Below are positions 3,309-63,548 of a stretch of 64,000 bases of DNA, piece after piece. How positions within the stretch are numbered: the stretch's first letter is position 1; the number at the start of each line of letters is the position of its first letter. Origin of the DNA: an uncultured Candidatus Berkelbacteria bacterium (GTDB lineage Bacteria; Patescibacteriota; UBA1384; XYA2-FULL-43-10; CAINNR01). The stretch covers positions 25 to 64,024 of the forward strand of contig CAINNR010000032.1 of the NCBI GenBank assembly GCA_903851235.1. The letters run 5' to 3'. The position numbers were made by a program, and so were the translations under genes. The notes under the pieces were generated by a model. That model was not told the DNA's origin and did not search any database. It was given only the letters and a program-made list of their open reading frames with translations.

Positions 3309-3356
3309 CTACCTAACCCAAGGATTTTCGGTTTTTAGGCTGAAAACTGCTTGGAT
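3309..3356. repeat. Direct repeat copy 1 (48 bp, identical to 4170-4217).
   Basis: ctacctaacccaaggattttcggtttttaggctgaaaactgcttggat. It is followed by a second, diverged similar block (...tagcatacttttaaaaaaaagtcaatgagt). Confidence 0.85.
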
Positions 3357-3404
3357 TAAGTACAAATCGTTACGCTTGCATTATAGCATACTTTTAAAAA
3401 AAAG

Positions 3405-3947
3405 TCAATGAGTTTTCTCTTGAATTTTCTTCACCATCTTAATACTGTAGTCTCTGAAATCATTTTTTAAATAAAAGTTGATGGCATTTTTATTAAATGC
3501 GTGGACGAGAACAATTAAATTATTAATTCCTTTTTTCTTTGCCCAATTCTGAGTATTTTCTATTAACATTGTCCCAACGCCCTGGCGGGAAAAATCTTTC
3601 GAAACCGACATTTCTTCAACTGAAACACGATTATAGGGGTGAGTCCAATCGTCTCCGTCATCTTTTTCTATAATTGCATAAAGTATGCCGACAACTTTTT
3701 CATCAATTTCGGCAACTAAAAGAAGAGCGTTTTTGTCCTCTGTAATATTTAGAAATGTTCCTTTTGGAAGTGTTGGGATTGGCGGATTTTTGTAATCATT
3801 GGAAATGTTTTTGCTGTAAAGCTTATAATTTTGTTGATATAAAAAATCAACAGATTGAAAATCTGTTTCAACTGCTTTTCTGATTTTGATATTTTCTATT
3901 GTCATTTTATTGTATTGTTCTGCCGGTGGACGCTTTAAGGCGTCCAC
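3405..3947 (-). CDS. GNAT family N-acetyltransferase.
   Basis: 'RQGVGTMLIENTQNWAKKKG' matches the acetyl-CoA binding motif A. The first 14 annotated codons overlap a perfect hairpin, so the true start may be the internal Met at ~3905 (MTIENIK...). Confidence 0.7.
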   Translation of the reverse strand: MDALKRPPAEQYNKMTIENIKIRKAVETDFQSVDFLYQQNYKLYSKNISNDYKNPPIPTLPKGTFLNITEDKNALLLVAEIDEKVVGILYAIIEKDDGDDWTHPYNRVSVEEMSVSKDFSRQGVGTMLIENTQNWAKKKGINNLIVLVHAFNKNAINFYLKNDFRDYSIKMVKKIQEKTH

Positions 3948-4169
3948 CGGCAGACTGATGTTCTCCGCCTCTACTTCTTGAACTTTTCCGGTTTGTAGCT
4001 CTCCTTCGTCGGGCCGGGCTTATTCCCGGGACCCCTCGGCACCTTGGTCTGGTGCTTGTCGCGGGTGCTTTTGGGGTTGCCTGTCGACTGCTTCTTCCGA
4101 TCGTGAGTCATGTTCGACACAACCTTTCTTGACGTCTGCGACAGGTCGGTTGGTGCTCGGAAGCGATCC

Positions 4170-4217
4170 TACCTAACCCAAGGATTTTCGGTTTTTAGGC
4201 TGAAAACTGCTTGGATC
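4170..4217. repeat. Direct repeat copy 2 (48 bp, identical to 3309-3356).
   Basis: Same 48-mer, followed by a diverged similar block (...tagcacacttcttgcaaaaagtcaatgagt). GC-rich DNA abuts the left side of both copies. Confidence 0.85.
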
Positions 4218-4493
4218 AGGCTTAAATCATTAACTCCTCCAGTATAGCACACTTCTTGCAAAAAGTCAATGAGTCTGTATATATTTTTATCGCTCTGACA
4301 TTTTTTCTATTACTATTATATCAAATCCCCTACAGATTATCCCTTTGATCCATTAGTAAATAGTAATAGAGCAAAGGAGTAAATCGTAAAGCGGGCAAAA
4401 ATTATAAAAAAAATGAAAAAAACGGGAATTACCGAGTCAAGTAGTTAGAACAGGTAACTTTAGTCGGGGTGTTGCATGATTCATAAGTTCTCC

Positions 4494-6939: not shown

Positions 6940-8214
6940 ATGAAAATACTACAACTTCTATGCGTTCCTCTTTACGGGACCGGAAGTGGAACTTACGTTA
7001 GAAAGCTCTCTGAACGTTTGGTAAAAAGCGGCCACCAAGTCGCAATCGTCACTCCGGATAATCGCGAACTTAAAAAAATAAAGATCTATGAAGTAAAATT
7101 GCCTTTTATGGCGACTTTTCTCGGTCAACCGGAACATCCTGAGGCGAAGCTTTACTCCAAGCTTTCCGGCGAAGAGCTTAATGATGTCCAAACGGCTTTC
7201 GAGTCATCAATTATCAAAGCGGTTGAGGATTTCAGGCCCGATGTTATCCATGTTCATCATGCTGCCAATTTGAGTTGGATCGCAAATTATCTAAAATCGG
7301 TTTATCAAATTCATTATATTATTACCTCTCATAACACTGATGTGATTAATGCAATTCTTGACAAAAGATATATACCGATGACCCAAGACGCTCTAAATCG
7401 GGCAGATGTAATTACGGCGGTTTCAAAAAACACTAAAGATCGGTTGTTGAAAATCTTTGGCAAAGGATTGCCAAAGATGAAATCAAAAACCAAGGTAATC
7501 TCTTGCGGTGTCGACACGAAATTTTATCCATCAAGAGGCAGCGTTGATTTGGCGAATGAAAAATTCAATCTGAAAGGAAAAAAAGTTATTCTTTATTCCG
7601 GCCGAGTAAATATCGTGAAAGGCGTCGGCATATTAATAAAAACGGCAAAATTGTTTCCGGAGATAGCCTTTGTTATTATGGGCAACGGTGAAGATTTGGA
7701 TCAACTAAAACAGTTGGTCAAAGAAATTGGCGTCAAGAATATTATTTTTACCGGTTATCTTGGCCCTGACGATCAAAATTTGATGTGCCAATTATACCGT
7801 CGAGCTGATATTGTCGCCGTTCCATCAATTATTGTTGAAGGTGTTCCACTCTCGGCGCTTGAAGCGATGTCCTCCGGCGCTTTGGTAATTGCCAGTAATA
7901 TCGGCGGAATCCCGACAGCTATCTCCAATTTAAAAAACGGAATTCTGGTTAAACCTAAAAGTGTTAGCGCCTTGGCCGAAGCGATAAAATTCGCATATAA
8001 CAATCCGAGAAAAGTTAAAAAAATGGTTTTGAAAGCTAGAAATGATGTCAAAACAAAGTTTGATTGGAAGGTAATTTCTAAAAAATTTGAACACGCATAT
8101 AATGTTGCTTTCCAGAGAGGATTAAAGAATCGCCTGACAAAGAAACCGTCATTTGTCAGCGAAGAGGAGTATATGGAAAGCAAGGAGTACGCAAAACAAA
8201 AAATTAAACTCTAG
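6940..8214 (+). CDS. Glycosyltransferase family 4 (group 1).
   Basis: C-terminal 'EGVPLSALEAMSSGALVIASNIGGIP' is a typical GT4 EX7E region. Confidence 0.8.
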   Translation: MKILQLLCVPLYGTGSGTYVRKLSERLVKSGHQVAIVTPDNRELKKIKIYEVKLPFMATFLGQPEHPEAKLYSKLSGEELNDVQTAFESSIIKAVEDFRPDVIHVHHAANLSWIANYLKSVYQIHYIITSHNTDVINAILDKRYIPMTQDALNRADVITAVSKNTKDRLLKIFGKGLPKMKSKTKVISCGVDTKFYPSRGSVDLANEKFNLKGKKVILYSGRVNIVKGVGILIKTAKLFPEIAFVIMGNGEDLDQLKQLVKEIGVKNIIFTGYLGPDDQNLMCQLYRRADIVAVPSIIVEGVPLSALEAMSSGALVIASNIGGIPTAISNLKNGILVKPKSVSALAEAIKFAYNNPRKVKKMVLKARNDVKTKFDWKVISKKFEHAYNVAFQRGLKNRLTKKPSFVSEEEYMESKEYAKQKIKL

Positions 8215-34663: not shown

Positions 34664-34693
34664 TCAAAAAAAGACGGCCAGTGGTCGGCCGTC
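34664..34693 (-). terminator. Intrinsic terminator of the 34692-35453 gene.
   Basis: gacggccgaccactggccgtc followed by tttttttt on the minus strand. Confidence 0.6.
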
Positions 34694-35453
34694 ATCGGTT
34701 GATGATTTCTTGGTGAGGAATGCGTGATTCGGCGATCACCGCTCCGGTCATTGTCGTCTGATCGGTATTTTCTGCGATCAGAACTTCTGCACTTTGTTGT
34801 AATTGATCTGCAACCGAAAGGTCTTTGCCGATTCGGTCGTTTGAGCAGTGGAAAGTTTTTGCCCAGTCATCAGCTTGTTGCTGGAGTATGATCAGCTGAT
34901 TTTCCAAATGTTCCATTGTTTTTTGTGACCGTTGAATTTCTGTATCAATTGATGGAATTCTAGACATCAACAGAGAGTTTCTTGACCTGTCACAGACTTT
35001 TCGGTCAAGATTCAAGTTGCCAATTGCTTTTTTCAACTTTCTGATGGATTTTTCTGTCTCTCGGATTTGTTCCATTAGACTTCTGTCCATTGGGTTTTTA
35101 TATCTCTGATTCCACGAATGCAACTTCCACTGGAACAGTCGCCAGCAGATTCGCGGGCTGAAGCGGAGGAGTTGGCGAAACAGCGGAACAAGAACAAAGT
35201 CGTAGAGCACGATCTGAATCATTCCGGGAAGTAATATTAACCACATGAAAGTGATAGGTCCTGGGCCGGGATCAGCCGAAAAGTCTGCAAGTCCATTCTT
35301 GCCCCATGGACTCTCCCCCTCTTTGGTCTCATCATATCGAAAATACCATGCGGCAATTGTTGTAATCAGAGACCAAATACCCAGTACACACATCCACCAA
35401 CTCATCAACATCACCTCTCTTACTGAGATACTTGAACCACTAAATATTATCAC
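34692..35453 (-). CDS. Membrane-anchored coiled-coil protein, hypothetical (paralog A).
   Basis: It shares an 'ILLPGMIQIVLYDFVLVPLFRQLLRFSPRICWR' block and about 100 bp of near-identical DNA with the next gene. Confidence 0.55.
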   Translation of the reverse strand: MIIFSGSSISVREVMLMSWWMCVLGIWSLITTIAAWYFRYDETKEGESPWGKNGLADFSADPGPGPITFMWLILLPGMIQIVLYDFVLVPLFRQLLRFSPRICWRLFQWKLHSWNQRYKNPMDRSLMEQIRETEKSIRKLKKAIGNLNLDRKVCDRSRNSLLMSRIPSIDTEIQRSQKTMEHLENQLIILQQQADDWAKTFHCSNDRIGKDLSVADQLQQSAEVLIAENTDQTTMTGAVIAESRIPHQEIINR

Positions 35454-35542
35454 GATTTTATTTTTTTGTCAAGATTTTCATTCACGATAATTAATTACCA
35501 ATAAAAAAAAGACGGCCAGCTTCGGCCGTCATTTGATAGTTG

Positions 35543-36235
35543 CTAGTGTTGTTCACCGCAAACTTTCGCTCTTGCCGCCTTTGTGGCGGTAAGTTTGTCA
35601 TCGATTTCTCGTGCAACTTCATCTGATATTTCCAAGAGTTCGTCAGCATTCAAAACGTCGTTCATGATTAAATCGCTGGGCCGAAAAAGTTCGAGGTGTT
35701 CAAGTTTTGCCGCTTCAATTTTTTGTAATTGAAGCTGTTGATCGGCAATTCTCTGGCGAAGATGTTTAATATCAGCTTCAACTTTTTCTAGCAATGCCTT
35801 GCGGGGAGTCTTCAAGCCTTCCAGAATCGCTCGATCAACCATAAGTGCTTTGATCCTGCTCTCCATTTTTGTGATTAGAGACTGAATTGATCTGGTGCAC
35901 TCATCGAATGAATCGGTTGAAACCTTGTTTTTTGCTCTAACGCGCCGTCCACCACGCCAAAGCTGAAACTTCCGCCAGCAGATTCGTGGGCTGAAGCGGA
36001 GGAGTTGGCGAAACAGCGGAGCAAGAACAAAGTCGTACAGCGCGATCTGGATAATTCCAGGAAAGATTATTAGCCAAAGGAAGCCTAACAACACGTCATA
36101 ATCAGGTGAAAAATCTATAAGGCCGCCATTGCCCCATATATTGCCTTTCTCTCTGACCGAAATATGCCGAAGCCACCATGCGGCAGCTGTCGCAACCAGC
36201 AACCAAATGGCTAATCCTGGCATCCACCAGACCAT
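35543..36235 (-). CDS. Membrane-anchored coiled-coil protein, hypothetical (paralog B).
   Basis: 'IIFPGIIQIALYDFVLAPLFRQLLRFSPRICWR'. Its own terminator at 35503-35530 resembles the paralog A terminator. Confidence 0.55.
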   Translation of the reverse strand: MVWWMPGLAIWLLVATAAAWWLRHISVREKGNIWGNGGLIDFSPDYDVLLGFLWLIIFPGIIQIALYDFVLAPLFRQLLRFSPRICWRKFQLWRGGRRVRAKNKVSTDSFDECTRSIQSLITKMESRIKALMVDRAILEGLKTPRKALLEKVEADIKHLRQRIADQQLQLQKIEAAKLEHLELFRPSDLIMNDVLNADELLEISDEVAREIDDKLTATKAARAKVCGEQH

Positions 36236-36328
36236 TACTACATCACCTCTCTCACTGAGATACTTAAGCCACTAAATATTAGCACGATTTTATTTTCTCG
36301 TCAAGATTTCTTTATCAAATTCTTGAAT

Positions 36329-37337: not shown

Positions 37338-37413
37338 GGGGTCGTAGTGTAGTGGTTATCACGTCTCCCTGTCACGGAGAAGATCGCCGGTTCGAGTCCG
37401 GTCGACCCCGCCA
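37338..37413 (+). tRNA. tRNA-Asp (anticodon GTC). It marks the left boundary of the cassette array.
   Basis: Acceptor ggggtcg/cgacccc, anticodon stem-loop tctcc-ctGTCac-ggaga, T-arm ccggt-tcgagtc-cggt, discriminator g, CCA. A TTGAAT-17-TAAAGT promoter lies upstream. Confidence 0.85.
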
Positions 37414-37476
37414 TTAAAATTAGTCGCTATCAGAGCGTCTTTTTTTGTATCAGGCAGACCGGATGCAGAACTTTTG
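37411..37476 (+). repeat. Boundary element E0: the tRNA-Asp 3' end, its downstream hairpin, T-tract and the right inverted repeat. This is the template that every later boundary element copies.
   Basis: ccattaaaattagtcgctatcagagcgtctttttttgtatcaggcagaccggatgcagaacttttg. Confidence 0.75.
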
Positions 37477-38273: not shown

Positions 38274-38370
38274 CAAAAAAGTTCTAACATCGTTCGCTAT
38301 TTCCCGCCAGCAAACCGAATGATGTTAGAACTATTCGGTTTAATCGCTCTAGAAGCGATTTTTTTGTTGT
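38274..38370 (+). repeat. Boundary element E1: perfect 11-bp inverted repeats, a tRNA-3' mimic and a terminator.
   Basis: caaaaaaGTTCTAACATC-gttcgctatttcccgcca-...GATGTTAGAAC, then aatcgctctagaagcgattttttt. Confidence 0.8.
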
Positions 38371-38830: not shown

Positions 38831-38931
38831 CAATAGTTCTAACGTCATTCGCTATCTCCCGCCATTTAAATTAGTCGCTCTTATAGCGTCTATTTTTTGT
38901 TACGGCAGACCGAATGTAGAACTTTTTATTG
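38831..38931 (+). repeat. Boundary element E2.
   Basis: caatagttctaac...cgctatctcccgccattt...agtcgctcttatagcgtctattttttgttacggcagaccgaatgtagaacttttt. Confidence 0.8.
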
Positions 38932-38982
38932 AGTGTTAACTTTCGAATTAGAATTTTTAACGGTGATGTATCTGAAATCCAG

Positions 38983-39011
38983 TTGACAAACATATTAAAA
39001 GTTGATTATAT
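38983..39011 (+). promoter_or_regulatory. Consensus promoter of cassette 3; leaderless mRNA.
   Basis: TTGACA, 17 nt, TTATAT, with the ATG six nt downstream. Confidence 0.55.
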
Positions 39012-42200: not shown

Positions 42201-42297
42201 CAAAAAGTTCTAACTTCCCCCGCTGTGTTCCGCCATTGAAAAAGTCTCTCTGGAAGAGATTATTTTTGTATACGGCAGACTGGATATAGAACTTTTG
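42201..42297 (+). repeat. Boundary element E5.
   Basis: caaaaagttctaacttcccccgctgtgttccgccattgaaaaagtctctctggaagagattatttttgtatacggcagactggatatagaacttttg. Confidence 0.8.
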
Positions 42298-42414
42298 TTT
42301 TTAAACGTAAAACTTCGGATTGGATTTGAAACGAAATGTATGGGCTATTGTCCAAGAGGTCGTCATCATGTACAGATGTTTGACAAAACTGTTGATTGCC
42401 AATAGACTTAGACT

Positions 42415-44574: not shown

Positions 44575-44672
44575 CAGAGTTCTATCATTGTTCGCTATTT
44601 CTCGCCATTGAAAATAGTCGCTTCCAGAGCGTCTGTTTTGCATCCGGCAGACCGGACGTAGAGCTTTTTTTA
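44575..44672 (+). repeat. Boundary element E8.
   Basis: cagagttctatcattgttcgctatttctcgccattgaaaatagtcgcttccagagcgtctgttttgcatccggcagaccggacgtagagcttttttt. Confidence 0.8.
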
Positions 44673-44709
44673 AATGTAAAGCTTCGAATTAGAATTTTTC
44701 ACAGCAGTA

Positions 44710-44738
44710 TTGACTTTTGAGTCTGAATATGATATTAT
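44710..44738 (+). promoter_or_regulatory. Promoter of cassette 9, followed by a ~185-nt structured leader.
   Basis: TTGACT, 17 nt, TATTAT. The leader contains several hairpins and a strong SD (aaGGAGGcgtttaggATG). Confidence 0.5.
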
Positions 44739-45460: not shown

Positions 45461-45498
45461 CAACAACAAGGAGGACGGACATCAGTTGTTCGTCTTCC

Positions 45499-45549
45499 CC
45501 CTCAACACATTAAGTGTTCTGATGAGTCGTTGAAATTACGACGAAAGGG
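45499..45549 (+). ncRNA. Hammerhead ribozyme (type III, open helix III), copy 1.
   Basis: CCCU-C|AACAC-auuaa-GUGUU-CUGAUGA-G-UCG-uugaaauua-CGA-C-GAAA-GGG. All core nucleotides are present. Helix I is a 5-bp hairpin, helix II is 4 bp closed by the conserved G10.1-C11.1 pair, and helix III is CCCU/AGGG. The predicted cleavage is after C at 45503. Confidence 0.75.
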
Positions 45550-45554
45550 ATAAA

Positions 45555-45653: not shown

Positions 45654-45685
45654 TATTCTTAAGCAATTAAAATATAATGTAACTA

Positions 45686-45714
45686 TTGACATTTTATAAC
45701 TTTCTTGCTATAAC
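45686..45714 (+). promoter_or_regulatory. Promoter of cassette 10.
   Basis: aactaTTGACA, 17 nt, TATAAC. An SD (AGGGAGG) then precedes the GTG start. Confidence 0.5.
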
Positions 45715-45750
45715 TATTATACATTCTGAGAATACAAGGGAGGTCATCAC

Positions 45751-46077: not shown

Positions 46078-46160
46078 GTTACTCCGACGACAGGTGTAAA
46101 GATCACCACCTAGCTGTAACAGGCTGGTGGTTTTTGTTTTAGACAGCGAAATTCTTGAAA

Positions 46161-46232
46161 CAAAATGTTCCAACTTCCTCTGCTGTCTACTGCCAATAAA
46201 TTAGTCTCTGATAGAGAGTCTTTTTTTGTGTA
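46161..46232 (+). repeat. Degenerate boundary element E10.
   Basis: aaatgttccaacttcctctgctgtctactgccaataaattagtctctgatagagagtctttttttgtgtact. Confidence 0.5.
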
Positions 46233-46745: not shown

Positions 46746-46837
46746 AGCTGCAACTTATATCAGGACTACGGAATTGTTTTGAAATCAAATTAATCAGAAC
46801 GTTCAAAGAAGGTCTTGGCTCCATATTGTTGATAATC

Positions 46838-47913: not shown

Positions 47914-47966
47914 TAAGCACAACAACAGAGGGGATTCACTAAGAGGGTACGAAGTTGTACTCTCCC

Positions 47967-48017
47967 CCCTCAACATTAAATTGTTCTGATGAGTCGTTGA
48001 AAATTACGACGAAAGGG
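47967..48017 (+). ncRNA. Hammerhead ribozyme (type III), copy 2.
   Basis: CCCU-C|AACA-uuaaau-UGUU-CUGAUGA-G-UCG-uugaaaauua-CGA-C-GAAA-GGG. Helix I is 4 bp; in copy 1 a compensatory change makes it 5 bp. Confidence 0.75.
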
Positions 48018-48021
48018 ATAA

Positions 48022-48112
48022 ACAAATAGTTCTATCATCCTCCATTACCTCTTACCATGAAAAAGTAGCCTTGGAAGCTATTTTTTTGTATATGGCAGAC
48101 CGAATGTAGAAC
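48022..48112 (+). repeat. Boundary element E14.
   Basis: caaatagttctatcatcctccattacctcttaccatgaaaaagtagccttggaagctatttttttgtatatggcagaccgaatgtagaacg. Confidence 0.8.
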
Positions 48113-48136
48113 GTCTGTCCTTCTAGGCTCACAACT

Positions 48137-48165
48137 ATTGACACACTTGGCACTTTTTGTTATAG
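48137..48165 (+). promoter_or_regulatory. Perfect-consensus promoter of cassette 15, duplicated at 62890-62918.
   Basis: aactaTTGACA-cacttggcactttttgt-TATAGT-gatttgcgaagac. The 46-bp segment 48133-48178 is almost identical to 62886-62931. Confidence 0.7.
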
Positions 48166-48196
48166 TGATTTGCGAAGACAGAATCCTGAAAGGATG

Positions 48197-48712
48197 TGTT
48201 TGTTTATGTCCTGCGGATGTCCGAGACCGTTGCTACTAGATGTTGATCTGCCGTTTCTGATCGAGACCGTCTTACCCCACGTGCTGGCCGAGGTTGCCAG
48301 AGTCAGCGACATGCGAGATCGAGAGGGTGGCATGTTCGTGTTGATGCGAGCCGTCACCGGCGAGATCATCGTCGGCCCGAAGCAGGTCGGCCAGATTAAC
48401 AACGGTAAGGAAGATAAGTACGCCGAGTTCGCTCAGGAGAAACCGGTTCGGCTCCTCGAACACCCAGATCACTGTCTGAGCTGGGAGAGTCGAGATCCGG
48501 ACAACAACAAGTGGGGTGGCGCCGTCAATGATGGCCTCTTCGTCTGGTCCTTCTCCGGACTCTCGGAGGAACAGGACGAAGCGCTCGTGCTGATGGCATC
48601 CCATCTCTGCGGCCGCATTCGCAACGGCGACCCCAAGGCAATGGCAGAGATTTCCAATAACAGAATCATCATCGACAATCCCTACCTCTTCTGGTGTCCT
48701 CGGGAGAGTTAG
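48197..48712 (+). CDS. Cassette 15: GC-rich hypothetical protein.
   Basis: About 170 aa (MCLFMSCGCPRPLLLDV...). The start is ambiguous between ATGs at 48197 and 48209; the track uses TTG at 48170. Confidence 0.5.
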   Translation, partial: CLFMSCGCPRPLLLDVDLPFLIETVLPHVLAEVARVSDMRDREGGMFVLMRAVTGEIIVGPKQVGQINNGKEDKYAEFAQEKPVRLLEHPDHCLSWESRDPDNNKWGGAVNDGLFVWSFSGLSEEQDEALVLMASHLCGRIRNGDPKAMAEISNNRIIIDNPYLFWCPRES

Positions 48713-48762
48713 AGTGTCGGCGACACGGGGACTTACCCAAATGGGCACGACCTGTGCCCATT

Positions 48763-48813
48763 CCCTCAACATTAAATTGTTCTGATGAGTCGTTGAAAAT
48801 TACGACGAAAGGG
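48763..48813 (+). ncRNA. Hammerhead ribozyme (type III), copy 3.
   Basis: CCCU-C|AACA-uuaaau-UGUU-CUGAUGA-G-UCG-uugaaaauua-CGA-C-GAAA-GGG. It is preceded by the terminator-like hairpin gggcac-gacct-gtgccc. Confidence 0.75.
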
Positions 48814-48818
48814 ATGAG

Positions 48819-48918
48819 CAAATTGTTCTAGCTTACTACGCTATCTTCCGCCAATAAAAATAGTCGTTCTACGAGAGGTTATTTTTTTGTATATTGCGGA
48901 CCGGATGCAGAACTTTTG
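48819..48918 (+). repeat. Boundary element E15.
   Basis: caaattgttctagcttactacgctatcttccgccaataaaaatagtcgttctacgagaggttatttttttgtatattgcggaccggatgcagaacttttg. Confidence 0.8.
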
Positions 48919-48950
48919 TCTTTATTGACCATTGAAACATCACAAATCTA

Positions 48951-49282: not shown

Positions 49283-49354
49283 CGCGACTTGCGACCCACC
49301 ACCTAGCCATATCAGGCTGGTGGTTTTTGTTTTATCGGCCAAAATTATCGAGGC

Positions 49355-49400
49355 AAAAAAATTCTAACTTCCTAGTTGATCTCCGACAATGAAAAATCGC
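49355..49400 (+). repeat. Degenerate boundary element E16 (left half).
   Basis: aaaaaaattctaacttcctagttgatctccgacaatgaaaaat. Confidence 0.45.
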
Positions 49401-52091: not shown

Positions 52092-53486
52092 ATGAATCTT
52101 TTATTCTCCAAAATTTCTCAGATATTAGACAAATTAATACGAAAAGAGGAAAAGCTCCGGCTTATTCCGCATTTTATTGTTATCTGTATTTTTACATTTC
52201 TAATTGCTAAAGTAGTTTTCAGGTCACCTACTTCCAATACAATATTATTTACTTATGGGATCACGGTCACATCAATATTATTTATGACTTTTACCGTCGC
52301 ATTTATCTTCTACAGGGATCCTTATGAAAAAGCTATGAAGGAAGCTAAAAAACTTTCCAAAATGGCGGACCCATTGGTTAGTTGCATGGTTGCAGTATTT
52401 AATGAAGAAAAAATTATTGAACAATGTGTTTTGTCAATTGTAAATCAAACATATCAGAATAAGGAAGTCATCTTCGTAAATGATAAAAGTACTGATAAAA
52501 CCGGCAAAATTCTCGATCGACTTGAAAAAAAATACAACTTCCGAACAATCCATCTGAAACAGAATCTTGGCAAGAAAGGTGCGCTTGCTCGCGCATGTCA
52601 TGAAGCAAAAGGCGATATACTGGCTTTTTCCGATAGTGATTCAATATGGGCCCCTGATGCGATAGAAAAAATTGTACCAATTTTTAAACACGACTCAAAA
52701 GTGGGGGCAGTTAGCGGTCATACACTGGCATTAAATGCCACTAAAAATCTACTCACAAGAGTCCAAGATTCCTGGTACGAAGGTCAATACTCCATCAGGA
52801 AAGCGTTTGAAAGTGTTTTCGGATGTGTAACTTGTGTTTCAGGTCCCCTAGCCGTTTTTCGTAGAGAAAGTATTTATAATTATATACCGGCATGGGAACA
52901 TGATAAGTTTTTGGGTCAACCATTTCGCTTTGCTACCGATCGAACTCTGACCGGCTTTGTCCTGGGTAGTAAATATATTAGTAAACGCATAAAGAAGAAA
53001 TACGCTACATCACCATTTATGAGCATTGATTATCCAGCGCAGGATTGGAAGATAGTATATTGCAAAGCTGCGCATGCCTGGACAGAAGTACCTGATACTT
53101 TTCGTGGGGTGATAAAACAACAAACGCGTTGGAAGAAGAGTTTTATCCGAAACATTTTTTTCACAGGCCGTTTCTATTGGCATAAACCACTTTTGCCTAC
53201 TCTGGTATATTACTTGCATATTGTCTTTGTTGTACTGGGCCCATTCGTTGTTTTTCGTCATCTAATTTACTTACCACTAAATGGAAATCTGTATTCAATG
53301 TTTCTCTACTTGGCTGGTATCTGTTTTATCGGTTTAATGTTCGGATTGGCAATAAAGCTTGAAGATCCAAAATCTCACCGTTGGATTTATCGACCGCTTA
53401 TGAGTCTGTTTTCAACACTGGTTTTGTCATGGCTTATTTTTTATTCAGCCTTAACTATCCGCAAGATGTTTTGGTCAAGGAATTAG
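52092..53486 (+). CDS. Processive family-2 glycosyltransferase (cellulose/chitin/hyaluronan-synthase-like), membrane-embedded.
   Basis: 'VAVFNEEKIIEQCVLSIVNQTY', 'VNDKSTD', 'FSDSDS', 'QQTRWKKSF' (QxxRW motif). Flanking TM helices. Confidence 0.8.
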   Translation: MNLLFSKISQILDKLIRKEEKLRLIPHFIVICIFTFLIAKVVFRSPTSNTILFTYGITVTSILFMTFTVAFIFYRDPYEKAMKEAKKLSKMADPLVSCMVAVFNEEKIIEQCVLSIVNQTYQNKEVIFVNDKSTDKTGKILDRLEKKYNFRTIHLKQNLGKKGALARACHEAKGDILAFSDSDSIWAPDAIEKIVPIFKHDSKVGAVSGHTLALNATKNLLTRVQDSWYEGQYSIRKAFESVFGCVTCVSGPLAVFRRESIYNYIPAWEHDKFLGQPFRFATDRTLTGFVLGSKYISKRIKKKYATSPFMSIDYPAQDWKIVYCKAAHAWTEVPDTFRGVIKQQTRWKKSFIRNIFFTGRFYWHKPLLPTLVYYLHIVFVVLGPFVVFRHLIYLPLNGNLYSMFLYLAGICFIGLMFGLAIKLEDPKSHRWIYRPLMSLFSTLVLSWLIFYSALTIRKMFWSRN

Positions 53487-62794: not shown

Positions 62795-62873
62795 CCTACT
62801 GCGCTTTGCTATTGAATTTTATTTTCTTCTAGAGCGTCTTTTTTTGTGTCTGGCAGACTGGATGCAAAACTTT
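62795..62873 (+). repeat. Boundary element E26.
   Basis: ctactgcgctttgctattgaattttattttcttctagagcgtctttttttgtgtctggcagactggatgcaaaacttttt. Confidence 0.7.
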
Positions 62874-62889
62874 TTCTTTTCCTAAACTA

Positions 62890-62918
62890 TTGACATGCTA
62901 GGCACTTTTTGTTATAGT
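62890..62918 (+). promoter_or_regulatory. Second copy of the perfect-consensus promoter (see 48137-48165).
   Basis: aactaTTGACA-tgctaggcactttttgt-TATAGT-gatttgcgaagac. Confidence 0.7.
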
Positions 62919-63016
62919 GATTTGCGAAGACGAACACCAACACGGGAGGCTTGAAAATGCCATTGGCAAAAGGACTTATAACTAAGCGTGGTGGCTCGCC
63001 GGTATCAGTATAAGAA

Positions 63017-63229
63017 GTGATCGATGCCTTAAGAGAGGCATACGACATTGAATCCGTTGAACTTCTCCCTTCGGGAGCGACACTTGTCACGACATCTGTC
63101 GGTAGCATTGTTGCCCATACAGCCGTCGTTATGGTGCCTCAAGAGCCAGGATGGCTGGCACACGCTGAACCCTGCGTCTTGGAAAGGGATATGAGATTCT
63201 TGGCCTTCATAGATGAGGTTGGGCGATAA
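63017..63229 (+). CDS. Cassette 27: GC-rich hypothetical protein, preceded by an 18-codon uORF (62957-63013).
   Basis: 70 aa. An SD (GGGAGG) serves the uORF MPLAKGLITKRGGSPVSV*, whose stop sits 3 nt before the GTG/ATG of the main ORF. Terminator gggccgtcag-taat-ctgacggcc-tttttt at 63241-63269. Confidence 0.45.
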   Translation: MIDALREAYDIESVELLPSGATLVTTSVGSIVAHTAVVMVPQEPGWLAHAEPCVLERDMRFLAFIDEVGR

Positions 63230-63445
63230 CAGTACCCGATATGTGCATCAGGGCCGTCAGTAATCTGACGGCCTTTTTTAATTACCAGTAAACCCCGCAC
63301 GAAAGCGTGCGTCGCGGCCGTAAGTTTAGTCGCTGAAGTGCGGGGATGAATGGCGTATTGAACGCAAGCTTGTCTTGCGCGTGGCGGAGCCAAGAAAACC
63401 CGGAATTAACGAAGTGGTTTCCGGGGAGGACGTCATTTAATTTTA

Positions 63446-63548
63446 AAAAGTCGGATATAAAAGTTCTCATTTCTTTCCTTTGACCTGTTAACCAAATAAT
63501 CTTATAGAAGAGACTATTTTTCTGGCAAAGCGGATATAAAACTTTTTG
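63446..63548 (+). repeat. Boundary element E27.
   Basis: aaaagttctcatttctttcctttgacctgttaaccaaataatcttatagaagagactatttttctggcaaagcggatataaaactttttg. Confidence 0.65.

Follow-up and report, generated by a model that had tools for sequence, protein, structure and literature searches.

Miniature inverted-repeat transposable elements (MITEs) of the Correia/NEMIS type are repeats of about 100-200 nt whose ends are inverted and which provide nearby genes with terminators and promoters; elements of this kind are marked by dispersed copies in either orientation and by target-site duplications. The tycheposons of Prochlorococcus are multi-kilobase elements that encode their own recombinase (bioRxiv 10.1101/2020.12.28.424599). 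The rAID-1 arrays of Bacteroidales immunity genes are co-directional rows of small genes whose GC content is skewed and whose intergenic sequence is repetitive; they have been described as 'reminiscent of integrons' and are defined by a 5' XerD-like recombinase and a low-GC immunity-gene cargo (bioRxiv 10.1101/471110). The structured DUF1874 motif recurs in consecutive intergenic regions with no adjacent integrase and was proposed as a possible unusual attC site (Weinberg et al. 2017, PMC5737381).

Here we describe a co-oriented array of short gene cassettes that starts at a tRNA-Asp gene in a 64,000-nt stretch of contig CAINNR010000032.1 (assembly GCA_903851235.1), referred to below as the window. 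Judged by protein similarity, the window is a piece of the chromosome of a Candidatus Berkelbacteria-like bacterium of the candidate phyla radiation (CPR, or Patescibacteria): it carries the housekeeping genes DnaK/DnaJ, PPDK, RuvABC and QueA/QueH, and the best named homologues of its RsmH protein are from Berkelbacteria (65-66% identity). The point of departure was a repeat in front of two unrelated cassettes. With a probability of about 0.65, we read this 47-nt repeat as a sigma-70-type promoter with a few transcribed bases, which forms one module of the non-coding conserved framework, here called the chassis, that separates the gene cassettes of the array. The functions given to promoters, terminators and ribozymes are predictions from sequence throughout.

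The promoter repeat and its seam with the cargo

The two copies of the repeat (sites 1 and 2), the cargo behind each of them, given as a ribosome-binding site (RBS) with its open reading frames (ORFs), and a related promoter are as follows.

48133-48179, + strand: shared promoter and initial-transcribed block, copy 1 (site 1), with the -35 element at 48138-48143, the -10 element at 48161-48166 and TG before the -10
48188-48712, + strand: cargo 1, RBS GAAAGGA (48188-48194) and a 168-aa ORF (48206-48712)
62885-62931, + strand: shared promoter and initial-transcribed block, copy 2 (site 2), with the -35 element at 62890-62895 and the -10 element at 62913-62918
62944-63229, + strand: cargo 2, RBS GGGAGG, an 18-codon ORF (62957-63013) and a 70-aa ORF with a GTG start (63017-63229)
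45681-45717, + strand: class-II promoter with the same AACTATTGACA -35 block, of which further copies lie at 48946 and 62227

The repeat that an earlier note on this DNA had pointed out is real: sites 1 and 2 are identical at 44 of 47 nt, with a longest perfect run of 31 nt, GGCACTTTTTGTTATAGTGATTTGCGAAGAC. The block reads AACTA-TTGACA-17 nt-TATAGT-13 nt with TG preceding the -10, and the predicted sigma-70-type signature TTGACA-17-TATAGT at 48138-48166 is identical at 62890-62918. It agrees with the sigma-70 consensus at 11 of 12 positions. Since the -10 reads TATAGT, the promoter is near-consensus and not perfect, as the earlier note had called it. Segment by segment, the two sites match at 6/6 positions of the -35, 14/17 of the spacer, 6/6 of the -10 and 13/13 of the nucleotides that follow it. 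With the hexamers excluded, 27 of 30 positions are identical (binomial P~2e-13), whereas the other AACTATTGACA promoters of the window agree with site 1 at merely 8-10 of these 30. In sliding 15-nt windows, identity is 11-15/15 from -5 to +47 and 2-6/15 on both outer sides. The earlier note had also described the first 15 nt of the leader as shared; of the 13 identical nucleotides after the -10, only about 6-8 would be transcribed, given an assumed transcription start ~7 nt after the -10.

The block is embedded in a more widely shared framework. At no more than one mismatch, AACTATTGACA occurs 8 times in the window (1.2 expected), and 5 of the 8 copies precede cassettes, in keeping with the -35 blocks that the earlier note had listed at 45681, 48946 and 62227. 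Near-consensus promoters lie on the + strand in front of the cassettes. The alignment of class-II 5' regions, along the lines of a check that the earlier note had proposed for all cassettes, reveals a common succession in six cassettes: terminator, right arm, TTTTGTCTTnCTA, AACTATTGACA, 17 nt and -10. Sites 1 and 2 have still more in common: the spacer, the -10 and the 13 nt behind it, and the loss of ~19 nt ('ATTGAAACAT') present in the other class-II copies. A promoter-upstream class of the form ACTAAAAAAGTGTTTCC...TTGAAACATTGCG...TTGACA is common to window junctions and to the contigs L014 and L015. Neither the window nor any fetched locus contains a further diverged copy of the block (31 nt, up to 7 mismatches), and an exact 26-mer of it is absent from the metagenomes of the Joint Genome Institute (JGI).

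Where the chassis ends could be mapped from homologues of the cargo. Cargo 1 (GC 0.57; GC3, the GC content of third codon positions, 0.71) has no Pfam match and a single homologue among 5.8e9 proteins (P0122, 74% identity, contig L018). Its start is most likely the ATG at 48206, which aligns with the ATG of this homologue, and not position 48197 as the earlier note had it. In L018 the gene stands behind another promoter (TGGACA-17-TATTAT) and another leader. Nucleotide homology between the window and L018 begins at the RBS, ~20 nt before the ATG (~48187), and runs to near the C-terminus; its start is thus no more than 8 nt away from position 48179, where the shared block ends. In L019, a contig of another species, the junctions at 8031 and 8610 are ~92% identical from terminator through promoter to leader, diverge at the RBS and are followed by different GC-rich ORFs. 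One of these ORFs is homologous to an ORF of L011 that lies behind a different chassis, and this homology again starts at the RBS, ACACGGAGG. In three comparisons, therefore, the seam between chassis and cargo lies a few bases after the predicted -10 region, on the immediate 5' side of the RBS; one cargo can occur behind different chassis, and one chassis module before different cargo. The assignment of the promoter to the framework and not to the cargo gene, which the earlier note had proposed, is supported by these seams and by the six-cassette alignment.

As for the proteins themselves, the cargo ORFs of sites 1 and 2 give no alignment at E<=100, so the earlier note was right to call them unrelated, and there are no paralogues among the 24 cassette ORFs. 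The coordinates 63017-63229 that it gave for the second ORF hold, with the addition that an 18-codon ORF (MPLAKGLITKRGGSPVSV) with the strong RBS GGGAGG lies directly behind the site-2 promoter. The stop of this small ORF is 3 nt ahead of the GTG, and it may encode a leader peptide or be translationally coupled to the 70-aa ORF, an ORFan for which no homologue was found.

Several observations concern the immediate surroundings of the repeat. GAAGAC ends the shared block in both copies (48174-48179 and 62926-62931), directly before the seam. We take GAAGAC to be the recognition sequence of BbsI-type IIS enzymes, cutting 2/6 nt downstream; its presence at the block end is probably a coincidence, and other seams have no GAAGAC. 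A sigma-54 reading of the spacer, based on TGGCAC, was rejected because the downstream GC element is missing and site 2 reads AGGCAC. On L018 (1-3164), the homologue of cargo 1 is a GC-rich gene on an AT-rich contig, beside a Replic_Relax protein and a TraG/VirD4-type coupling protein, a neighbourhood that points to a conjugative or mobilisable element drawing on the same cargo pool. Between the terminator of the site-2 ORF and the following left arm, a GC-rich non-coding stretch of ~168 nt (63283-63450) folds on the + strand at -59 kcal/mol, better than shuffled sequences (z -2.7), and has no Rfam match.

The tRNA-anchored array and its junctions

The features of the array and of the junctions around sites 1 and 2 are listed below; the right arm is the box that follows the terminator in most junctions, and the left arm the box that precedes it.

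37338-64000, + strand: co-oriented cassette array with repeat families D2-D9, extending past the window end
37338-37413, + strand: tRNA-Asp(GTC), the array anchor and first 'left arm' (ARAGORN; Rfam tRNA 68.9 bits)
37414-37471, + strand: predicted post-tRNA intrinsic terminator with right arm GGCAGACCGGATGCAGAAC (37453-37471), which repeats the T-arm/acceptor 3' half of tRNA-Asp imperfectly and in inverted orientation
48024-48057, + strand: left arm of the junction before site 1, a tRNA 3'-end mimic with a degenerate ...CTTACCA (family D2, from the alignment)
48060-48087, + strand: predicted intrinsic terminator hairpin with T-run, the apex of the junction palindrome before site 1
48094-48112, + strand: right arm GGCAGACCGAATGTAGAAC before site 1
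48760-48816, + strand: hammerhead type III-like motif 3' of cargo 1, with further copies at 45496-45552 and 47964-48020
48820-48853, + strand: left arm ...TCCGCCA, which closes the site-1 cassette (family D2/D10)
62852-62870, + strand: right arm GGCAGACTGGATGCAAAAC upstream of site 2
63460-63494, + strand: degenerate left arm (AAAGTTCTCATTT...AACCA), which closes the site-2 cassette

A full junction consists, from 5' to 3', of a left arm, an intrinsic terminator, a right arm, a spacer beginning TTTTGT and a near-consensus promoter. The left arm, AAAAAGTTCTAACATCGTTCGCTATTTCCCGCCA, mimics a tRNA 3' end (...CCGCCA), the terminator has the form AAAATAGTCGCT-loop-AGCGACTATTTTT, and the right arm reads GGCAGACCGGATGYAGAAC. 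Taken as its reverse complement, GTTCTGCATCCGGTCTGCC, the right arm imperfectly copies the T-arm and the acceptor 3' half of tRNA-Asp, GTTCGAGTCCGGTCGACC. At the junctions 38276, 43911 and 47455 the right arm precedes the terminator, and these form compact hairpins, GTTCTAAC...GTTAGAAC. The junction before site 2 has a decayed left arm, and its terminator stem has decayed in the 5' half; behind the left arm at 63460-63494 come a terminator, a right arm (63524) and the next promoter. The contig L022 reaches 252 nt beyond the window end and has one more right arm there.

These repeats are strongly over-represented and sharply confined. The left-arm 21-mer has 7 matches in the window (0 expected) and the right-arm 17-mer has 10, all on the + strand (0.08 expected); all of them fall within 37.4-62.9 kb, and none within the 37 kb of core genes upstream. 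Across 10 junctions, 94% of the cells of the terminator helix are paired, with compensatory changes in 3 pairs, and the arm-arm helices are paired in 70-80% of cells versus 33-43% in slid controls.

The intervening short ORFs range from 0.24 to 0.76 in GC3. Their predicted functions are mixed (methyltransferases, radical SAM/SPASM, TPR, DUF1801, DUF5674 and small membrane proteins), and a typical cargo consists of RBS and ORF with its own 3' stem-loop or hammerhead-like motif, is often GC-rich and is often an ORFan; relative to the host, the array cargo is GC-rich.

The three hammerhead-like motifs of the window match the full Rfam model RF00008 with 36.1, 40.6 and 32.4 bits (E 1e-4, 5e-6 and 1e-3), below the gathering score of 48.5, and have the conserved core (CUGAUGA...GAAA, with an NUH cleavage triplet) and all three stems. 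Each lies between a GC-rich cassette ORF, directly 3' of it, and a left arm, and a fourth copy was found on JGI contig L015 (reverse strand, ~66-130). All 13 pairs are invariant among the four copies, which therefore offer no covariation. Over 53 nt the copies at 47967 and 48763 do not differ at all, though the left arms that follow them are just ~60% alike. If active, cleavage at these motifs would cut the left arm and terminator off the mRNA. At its gathering threshold Rfam returned tRNAs alone, and at a permissive threshold nothing credible beyond the three hammerhead-like matches.

Other parts of the junctions are reused as well. A second post-right-arm class, AACTTCGAATTAGAATTTTTNAC, is common to three cassettes (38904-38990, 42274-42360 and 44646-44730), each followed by a different promoter, so that the chassis 5' regions fall into at least three families. 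A 3' module with the terminator CACCACCTAGC...GGCTGGTGGTTTTTGTTTTA occurs at 46104-46165 and 49297-49358 (79% identity over 62 nt) behind two unrelated ORFs and mirrors, at the 3' side, the reuse of the promoter; the junctions of L019 have a similar terminator, CCACCAGC...GGTGG.

Two structural interpretations of the left arm were tried and rejected: as a 28-bp dif/Xer site, because its second half-site is not an inverted copy and the partner arm is at least 40 nt away, and as a tRNA-like fold, because there is no T-stem pairing. Outside this lineage, the right-arm box gave three single matches in the genome collection, in metagenome-assembled genomes of Treponema, Thermoguttaceae and Endomicrobiaceae; as no other framework element accompanies them, they are regarded as chance matches (~1 expected). 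Viral contigs contained neither a left arm nor an inverted T-arm box nor a hammerhead module. Three repeats of the window lie outside the array: an 84-nt tandem repeat in three copies (812-1147) inside the ORF 760-1236, a pair of 64- and 42-nt repeats 860 nt apart (3309-3413 and 4169-4274), and two adjacent paralogous minus-strand ORFs at 34692-36309 (253 and 230 aa, without Pfam match) with 86-91% identical repeats 832 nt apart.

Strain variants and competing explanations

Several related contigs were compared with the window. In L009, the tRNA gene and RsmH flank are identical to the window and divergence sets in immediately after ...CCCCGCCA. As in tRNA islands, the tRNA 3' end is repeated directly some way behind tRNA-Asp (~150-180 nt) in L009 and L019: a second perfect 17-nt copy, TCCGGTCGAYCCCGCCA, ~150 nt downstream in L009, and a perfect 17-nt copy likewise in L019. 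L011 has a 16/17 copy, and those within the window are diverged mimics ending in CCGCCA. We take the divergence of L009 directly behind the CCA, and these second tRNA ends, for probable footprints of recombination at the end of the tRNA gene. An element equivalent to the post-tRNA terminator and right arm of the window is found 3' of tRNA-Asp in L009, L011 and L019, and these three contigs have a conserved post-tRNA element that contains GACCGGRCGAGAACC, an inverted T-arm copy. The flanks of L011 and L019 are syntenic, with HIT...Ser_hydrolase on one side and RsmH-DnaJ-DnaK on the other, while different genes of higher GC content (0.53-0.61 versus 0.34-0.42 in the flanks) lie between tRNA-Asp and RsmH. 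In L014, whose RsmH is 68% identical, and in the JGI contigs L015-L017, the left arms match those of the window exactly or nearly so, and L017 has the order tRNA-Asp, terminator, promoter, ORF and left arm. The junction layout of the window is therefore found at tRNA-Asp in further Berkelbacteria-like lineages (L011, L014, L015, L017 and L019). Two contigs from other samples, L003 and L004, are identical to the window downstream of a junction and different upstream. The break in L004 is exactly at AAAAAGTTCTAAC (47455), and that in L003 is 32 nt 5' of the left arm at 46835, where GC 0.58 replaces 0.32. A deletion between two junctions was tested for, and the variant heads of both contigs, which are short, have no match elsewhere in the window. 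Within conserved synteny, then, co-occurring strains differ in what the array contains, and so do species.

Further details of these relatives are recorded here. The post-tRNA element is a non-coding stretch of ~150-180 nt between the end of tRNA-Asp and the 17-nt repeat (L009, reverse strand; L011 7882-8010; L019 6702-6880), made up of a terminator, TGTAGAATTT..GACCGGRCGAGAACC and an GGTCGGGAAAC...GTTTCCCG hairpin; it belongs to no Rfam family and is absent from the window version of the locus. In L017 (reverse strand, ~74-453) the intact tRNA-Asp is accompanied by a partial 5' copy of itself, which a GC-rich insert of ~42 nt breaks up; a small GIY-YIG-like ORF separates the two and may be a homing-endonuclease-type insertion at the same tRNA. 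L002 (9242-9389), from the same sample, diverges from the window from 52883 onward, inside a family-2 glycosyltransferase gene (52092-53486), which suggests strain-level allelic replacement in a polysaccharide cluster embedded in the array.

In our preferred reading, the locus is a cassette array of integron-like or tRNA-island-like kind that would have been built by site-specific recombination at tRNA-like sites, and each cassette would be insulated by the terminator and expressed from its own chassis promoter. Sites 1 and 2 would hold two sister copies of a single chassis 5' module, in which the promoter segment was kept identical, or recently homogenised, while different RBS-ORF units were joined behind it. 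A recombinase encoded outside the window would catalyse the assembly.

A number of points weigh against this reading. The shared block exists in just two genomic copies, and promoter activity is predicted from the consensus alone, promoter-like sites being modestly enriched (44 versus 29.4 +/- 5.6 in shuffles). The seam is not confirmable at site 2, whose cargo is an ORFan. No integrase, resolvase or transposase domain was detected in ~65 ORFs of the window, a few ORFs of 120-153 aa being unscanned, nor was a recombinase found in the neighbourhoods of L011, L019 and L021; the enzyme would hence have to act in trans. The pairing of the arms comes with few compensatory changes, so that it does not establish a folded single-stranded DNA site. 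In the ENA metagenome assemblies from which the DNA comes, one and the same clone (100% identity) is found in several samples, and as the population contigs are otherwise 100% identical, direct evidence of ongoing cassette movement is lacking. Finally, the breakpoints disagree (after ...CCGCCA in L009, at the 5' edge of the left arm in L003 and L004, and at the right arm in none of the three), which leaves the crossover point undefined.

Among the other explanations, a possible one, though we hold it well below even odds, is that recent gene conversion or homologous recombination copied a promoter patch of ~50 nt between independent cassettes, the sharing being an accident of repeat-rich DNA. 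The upstream framework of the two sites, realigned with indels, is identical at 35 of 52 positions (67%), below the 44 of 47 of the block (Fisher P=0.001), and the 31-nt perfect tract within it is what such a patch would look like; other short modules are likewise shared by differing cassettes, such as the 53-nt hammerhead-like segment (47967/48763) and the 3' module of family D15 (46104/49297). However, the tract ends on its 3' side at the very seam that the comparison with L018 located independently. A conversion tract would stop there just if homology ends there, which makes the promoter a part of the chassis again, and conversion then becomes a sub-mechanism of the preferred reading and not a true alternative to it.

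More doubtful is the idea that the whole chassis is a promoter-containing attachment site, with the crossover at its 3' edge just after the -10. Promoterless RBS-ORF units would then be captured behind a resident promoter, as in an integron whose every attC analogue carries its own cassette promoter (Pc). The position of the seam a few nucleotides 5' of the RBS in the three comparisons resembles that of integron cassette boundaries relative to their ORFs, and in L003 and L004 the junction is unchanged and the upstream cargo different, as if the junction travelled with the downstream ORF. Yet the seams share no conserved motif (GAAGAC/AGAATCC, GAAGAC/GAACACC, ATCACAG/TCC and ATCACCAC/GAC, with the slash at the seam), the distance from right arm to seam varies from ~60 to ~110 nt, and L009 diverges after the CCA and not after a promoter.

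A far-reaching extension, to which we give little credence, sees in the locus a gene-capture platform of Berkelbacteria that is analogous to integrons but distinct from them. The 3' end of tRNA-Asp would be the entry site, the palindromic tRNA-mimic junctions would be the cassette sites, and the terminator and promoter of the junction would insulate and express any captured RBS-ORF unit. In its radical version, the cargo unit would be defined in RNA, and new cassettes would be processed transcripts retro-captured between a resident promoter and a ribozyme. This version builds on the 5' seam, ~6-14 nt after the predicted transcription start, and on a 3' seam at most ~10 nt from the hammerhead-like cleavage site in three cassettes.

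It is improbable that the repeats are MITE- or Correia-like mobile elements inserted between pre-existing genes that are not cassettes. The arms are indeed inverted repeats flanking ~60 nt, and a terminator and a promoter are carried as in Correia elements. Against mobility of this kind, each of the 10 right arms and every left arm has the orientation of the genes (+ strand), copies are confined to 37.4-62.9 kb with none in the upstream core genes, and the first copy is the tRNA itself; the wide GC3 range of the intervening ORFs and the variation of gene content between conserved flanks among species also speak against it. Quite improbable, too, is selection, in which one regulator binds both promoters and its operator over the spacer and transcription start was conserved or converged. 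The identity does cover the spacer and the initial transcribed bases, a frequent operator location, and a weak palindrome, CACT-N9-AGTG, read from the sequence, spans the -10. But 31 nt of perfect identity far exceed the needs of an operator, and the ~19-nt deletion common to the two sites points to their common descent. Local segmental duplication or cryptic homology of the two ORFs, which the earlier note had named as what would overturn its view, can be dismissed, as the proteins do not align, the sole BLASTN match between the two regions covers 103 nt at 80.6% and the flanking genes differ.

Comparison with known systems

CPR genomes are tiny, and we found no gene-capture system described for CPR bacteria. 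In the literature, no description was found of integrons or attC sites in Patescibacteria, of Berkelbacteria with a tRNA and an integrase, or of hammerheads with Patescibacteria, nor any published account of tRNA-anchored terminator-promoter cassette arrays in CPR bacteria. The junctions resemble the DUF1874 motif in their recurrence in consecutive intergenic regions without an integrase and differ from it in sequence and structure; Rfam gave no match to it here. With the Correia/NEMIS elements they have in common inverted ends and a predicted terminator and promoter for neighbouring genes, but they occur in a single orientation, are confined to one tRNA-anchored array and are tied to the turnover of the intervening genes. 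Like rAID-1, the array is co-directional, its genes being small and skewed in GC content and its intergenic sequences repetitive; unlike rAID-1, it has no XerD-like recombinase in the window, and its cargo, of mixed function, is richer in GC than the host.

The likeness to tRNA-targeted islands and tycheposons lies in the position of the island at a tRNA 3' end and in the partial tRNA 3'-end copies inside it (the perfect 17-mers of L009 and L019); as in tycheposons, content varies between strains within conserved synteny and the newer material is next to the tRNA. In contrast to tycheposons, the units of the array are single-gene cassettes of 0.6-1 kb without integrase or replication module, and the repeat is a diverged tRNA mimic with an inverted T-arm copy and a promoter instead of a plain att site of ~40 nt.

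The features shared with integrons and with clusters of attC lacking an integrase (CALINs) are co-oriented short unrelated ORFs, compositionally heterogeneous and often ORFans, between imperfect-palindrome repeats. As in integron cassettes, the seam is just 5' of the RBS, and as in CALINs, no integrase is adjacent in the array. An attC site is an imperfect palindrome, R''(RYYYAAC)-L''...L'-R'(GTTRRRY), with extrahelical bases and a central spacer that stays unpaired; the crossover falls at G|TT of R', and the site travels 3' of its ORF. The compact junctions at 38276 and 43911 have unpaired spacers and an inner CGCTA/TAGCG box comparable to R''/L''/L'/R'; they fit attC loosely (TTCTAAC / GTTAGAA; fold z -5.0 and -2.4). 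The type-A right arms, GTAGAAC or GCAGAAC, depart from attC in having no GTT of R'. Moreover, the array is anchored at a tRNA gene and not at intI/attI, its junctions mimic the tRNA 3' end, some of its cassettes have a hammerhead-like motif, and the host is a CPR bacterium. Integron cassettes are mostly promoterless and are read from Pc, whereas most junctions of the array enclose a terminator followed by a dedicated promoter, so that the cassettes would be self-expressed and insulated.

The sharp and recurrent seam between the chassis and the RBS-ORF unit bears on the long-standing question of the origin of gene cassettes, which becomes testable in a new system, and the chassis parts (near-consensus promoter, terminator and hammerhead-like insulator) resemble natural counterparts of synthetic-biology expression cassettes. 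If confirmed, the array would help explain how episymbionts acquire and express foreign genes, GC-rich ones included, and it would represent a second, independent solution to the integron problem, in which each acquired gene is insulated and expressed by its own terminator-promoter chassis.

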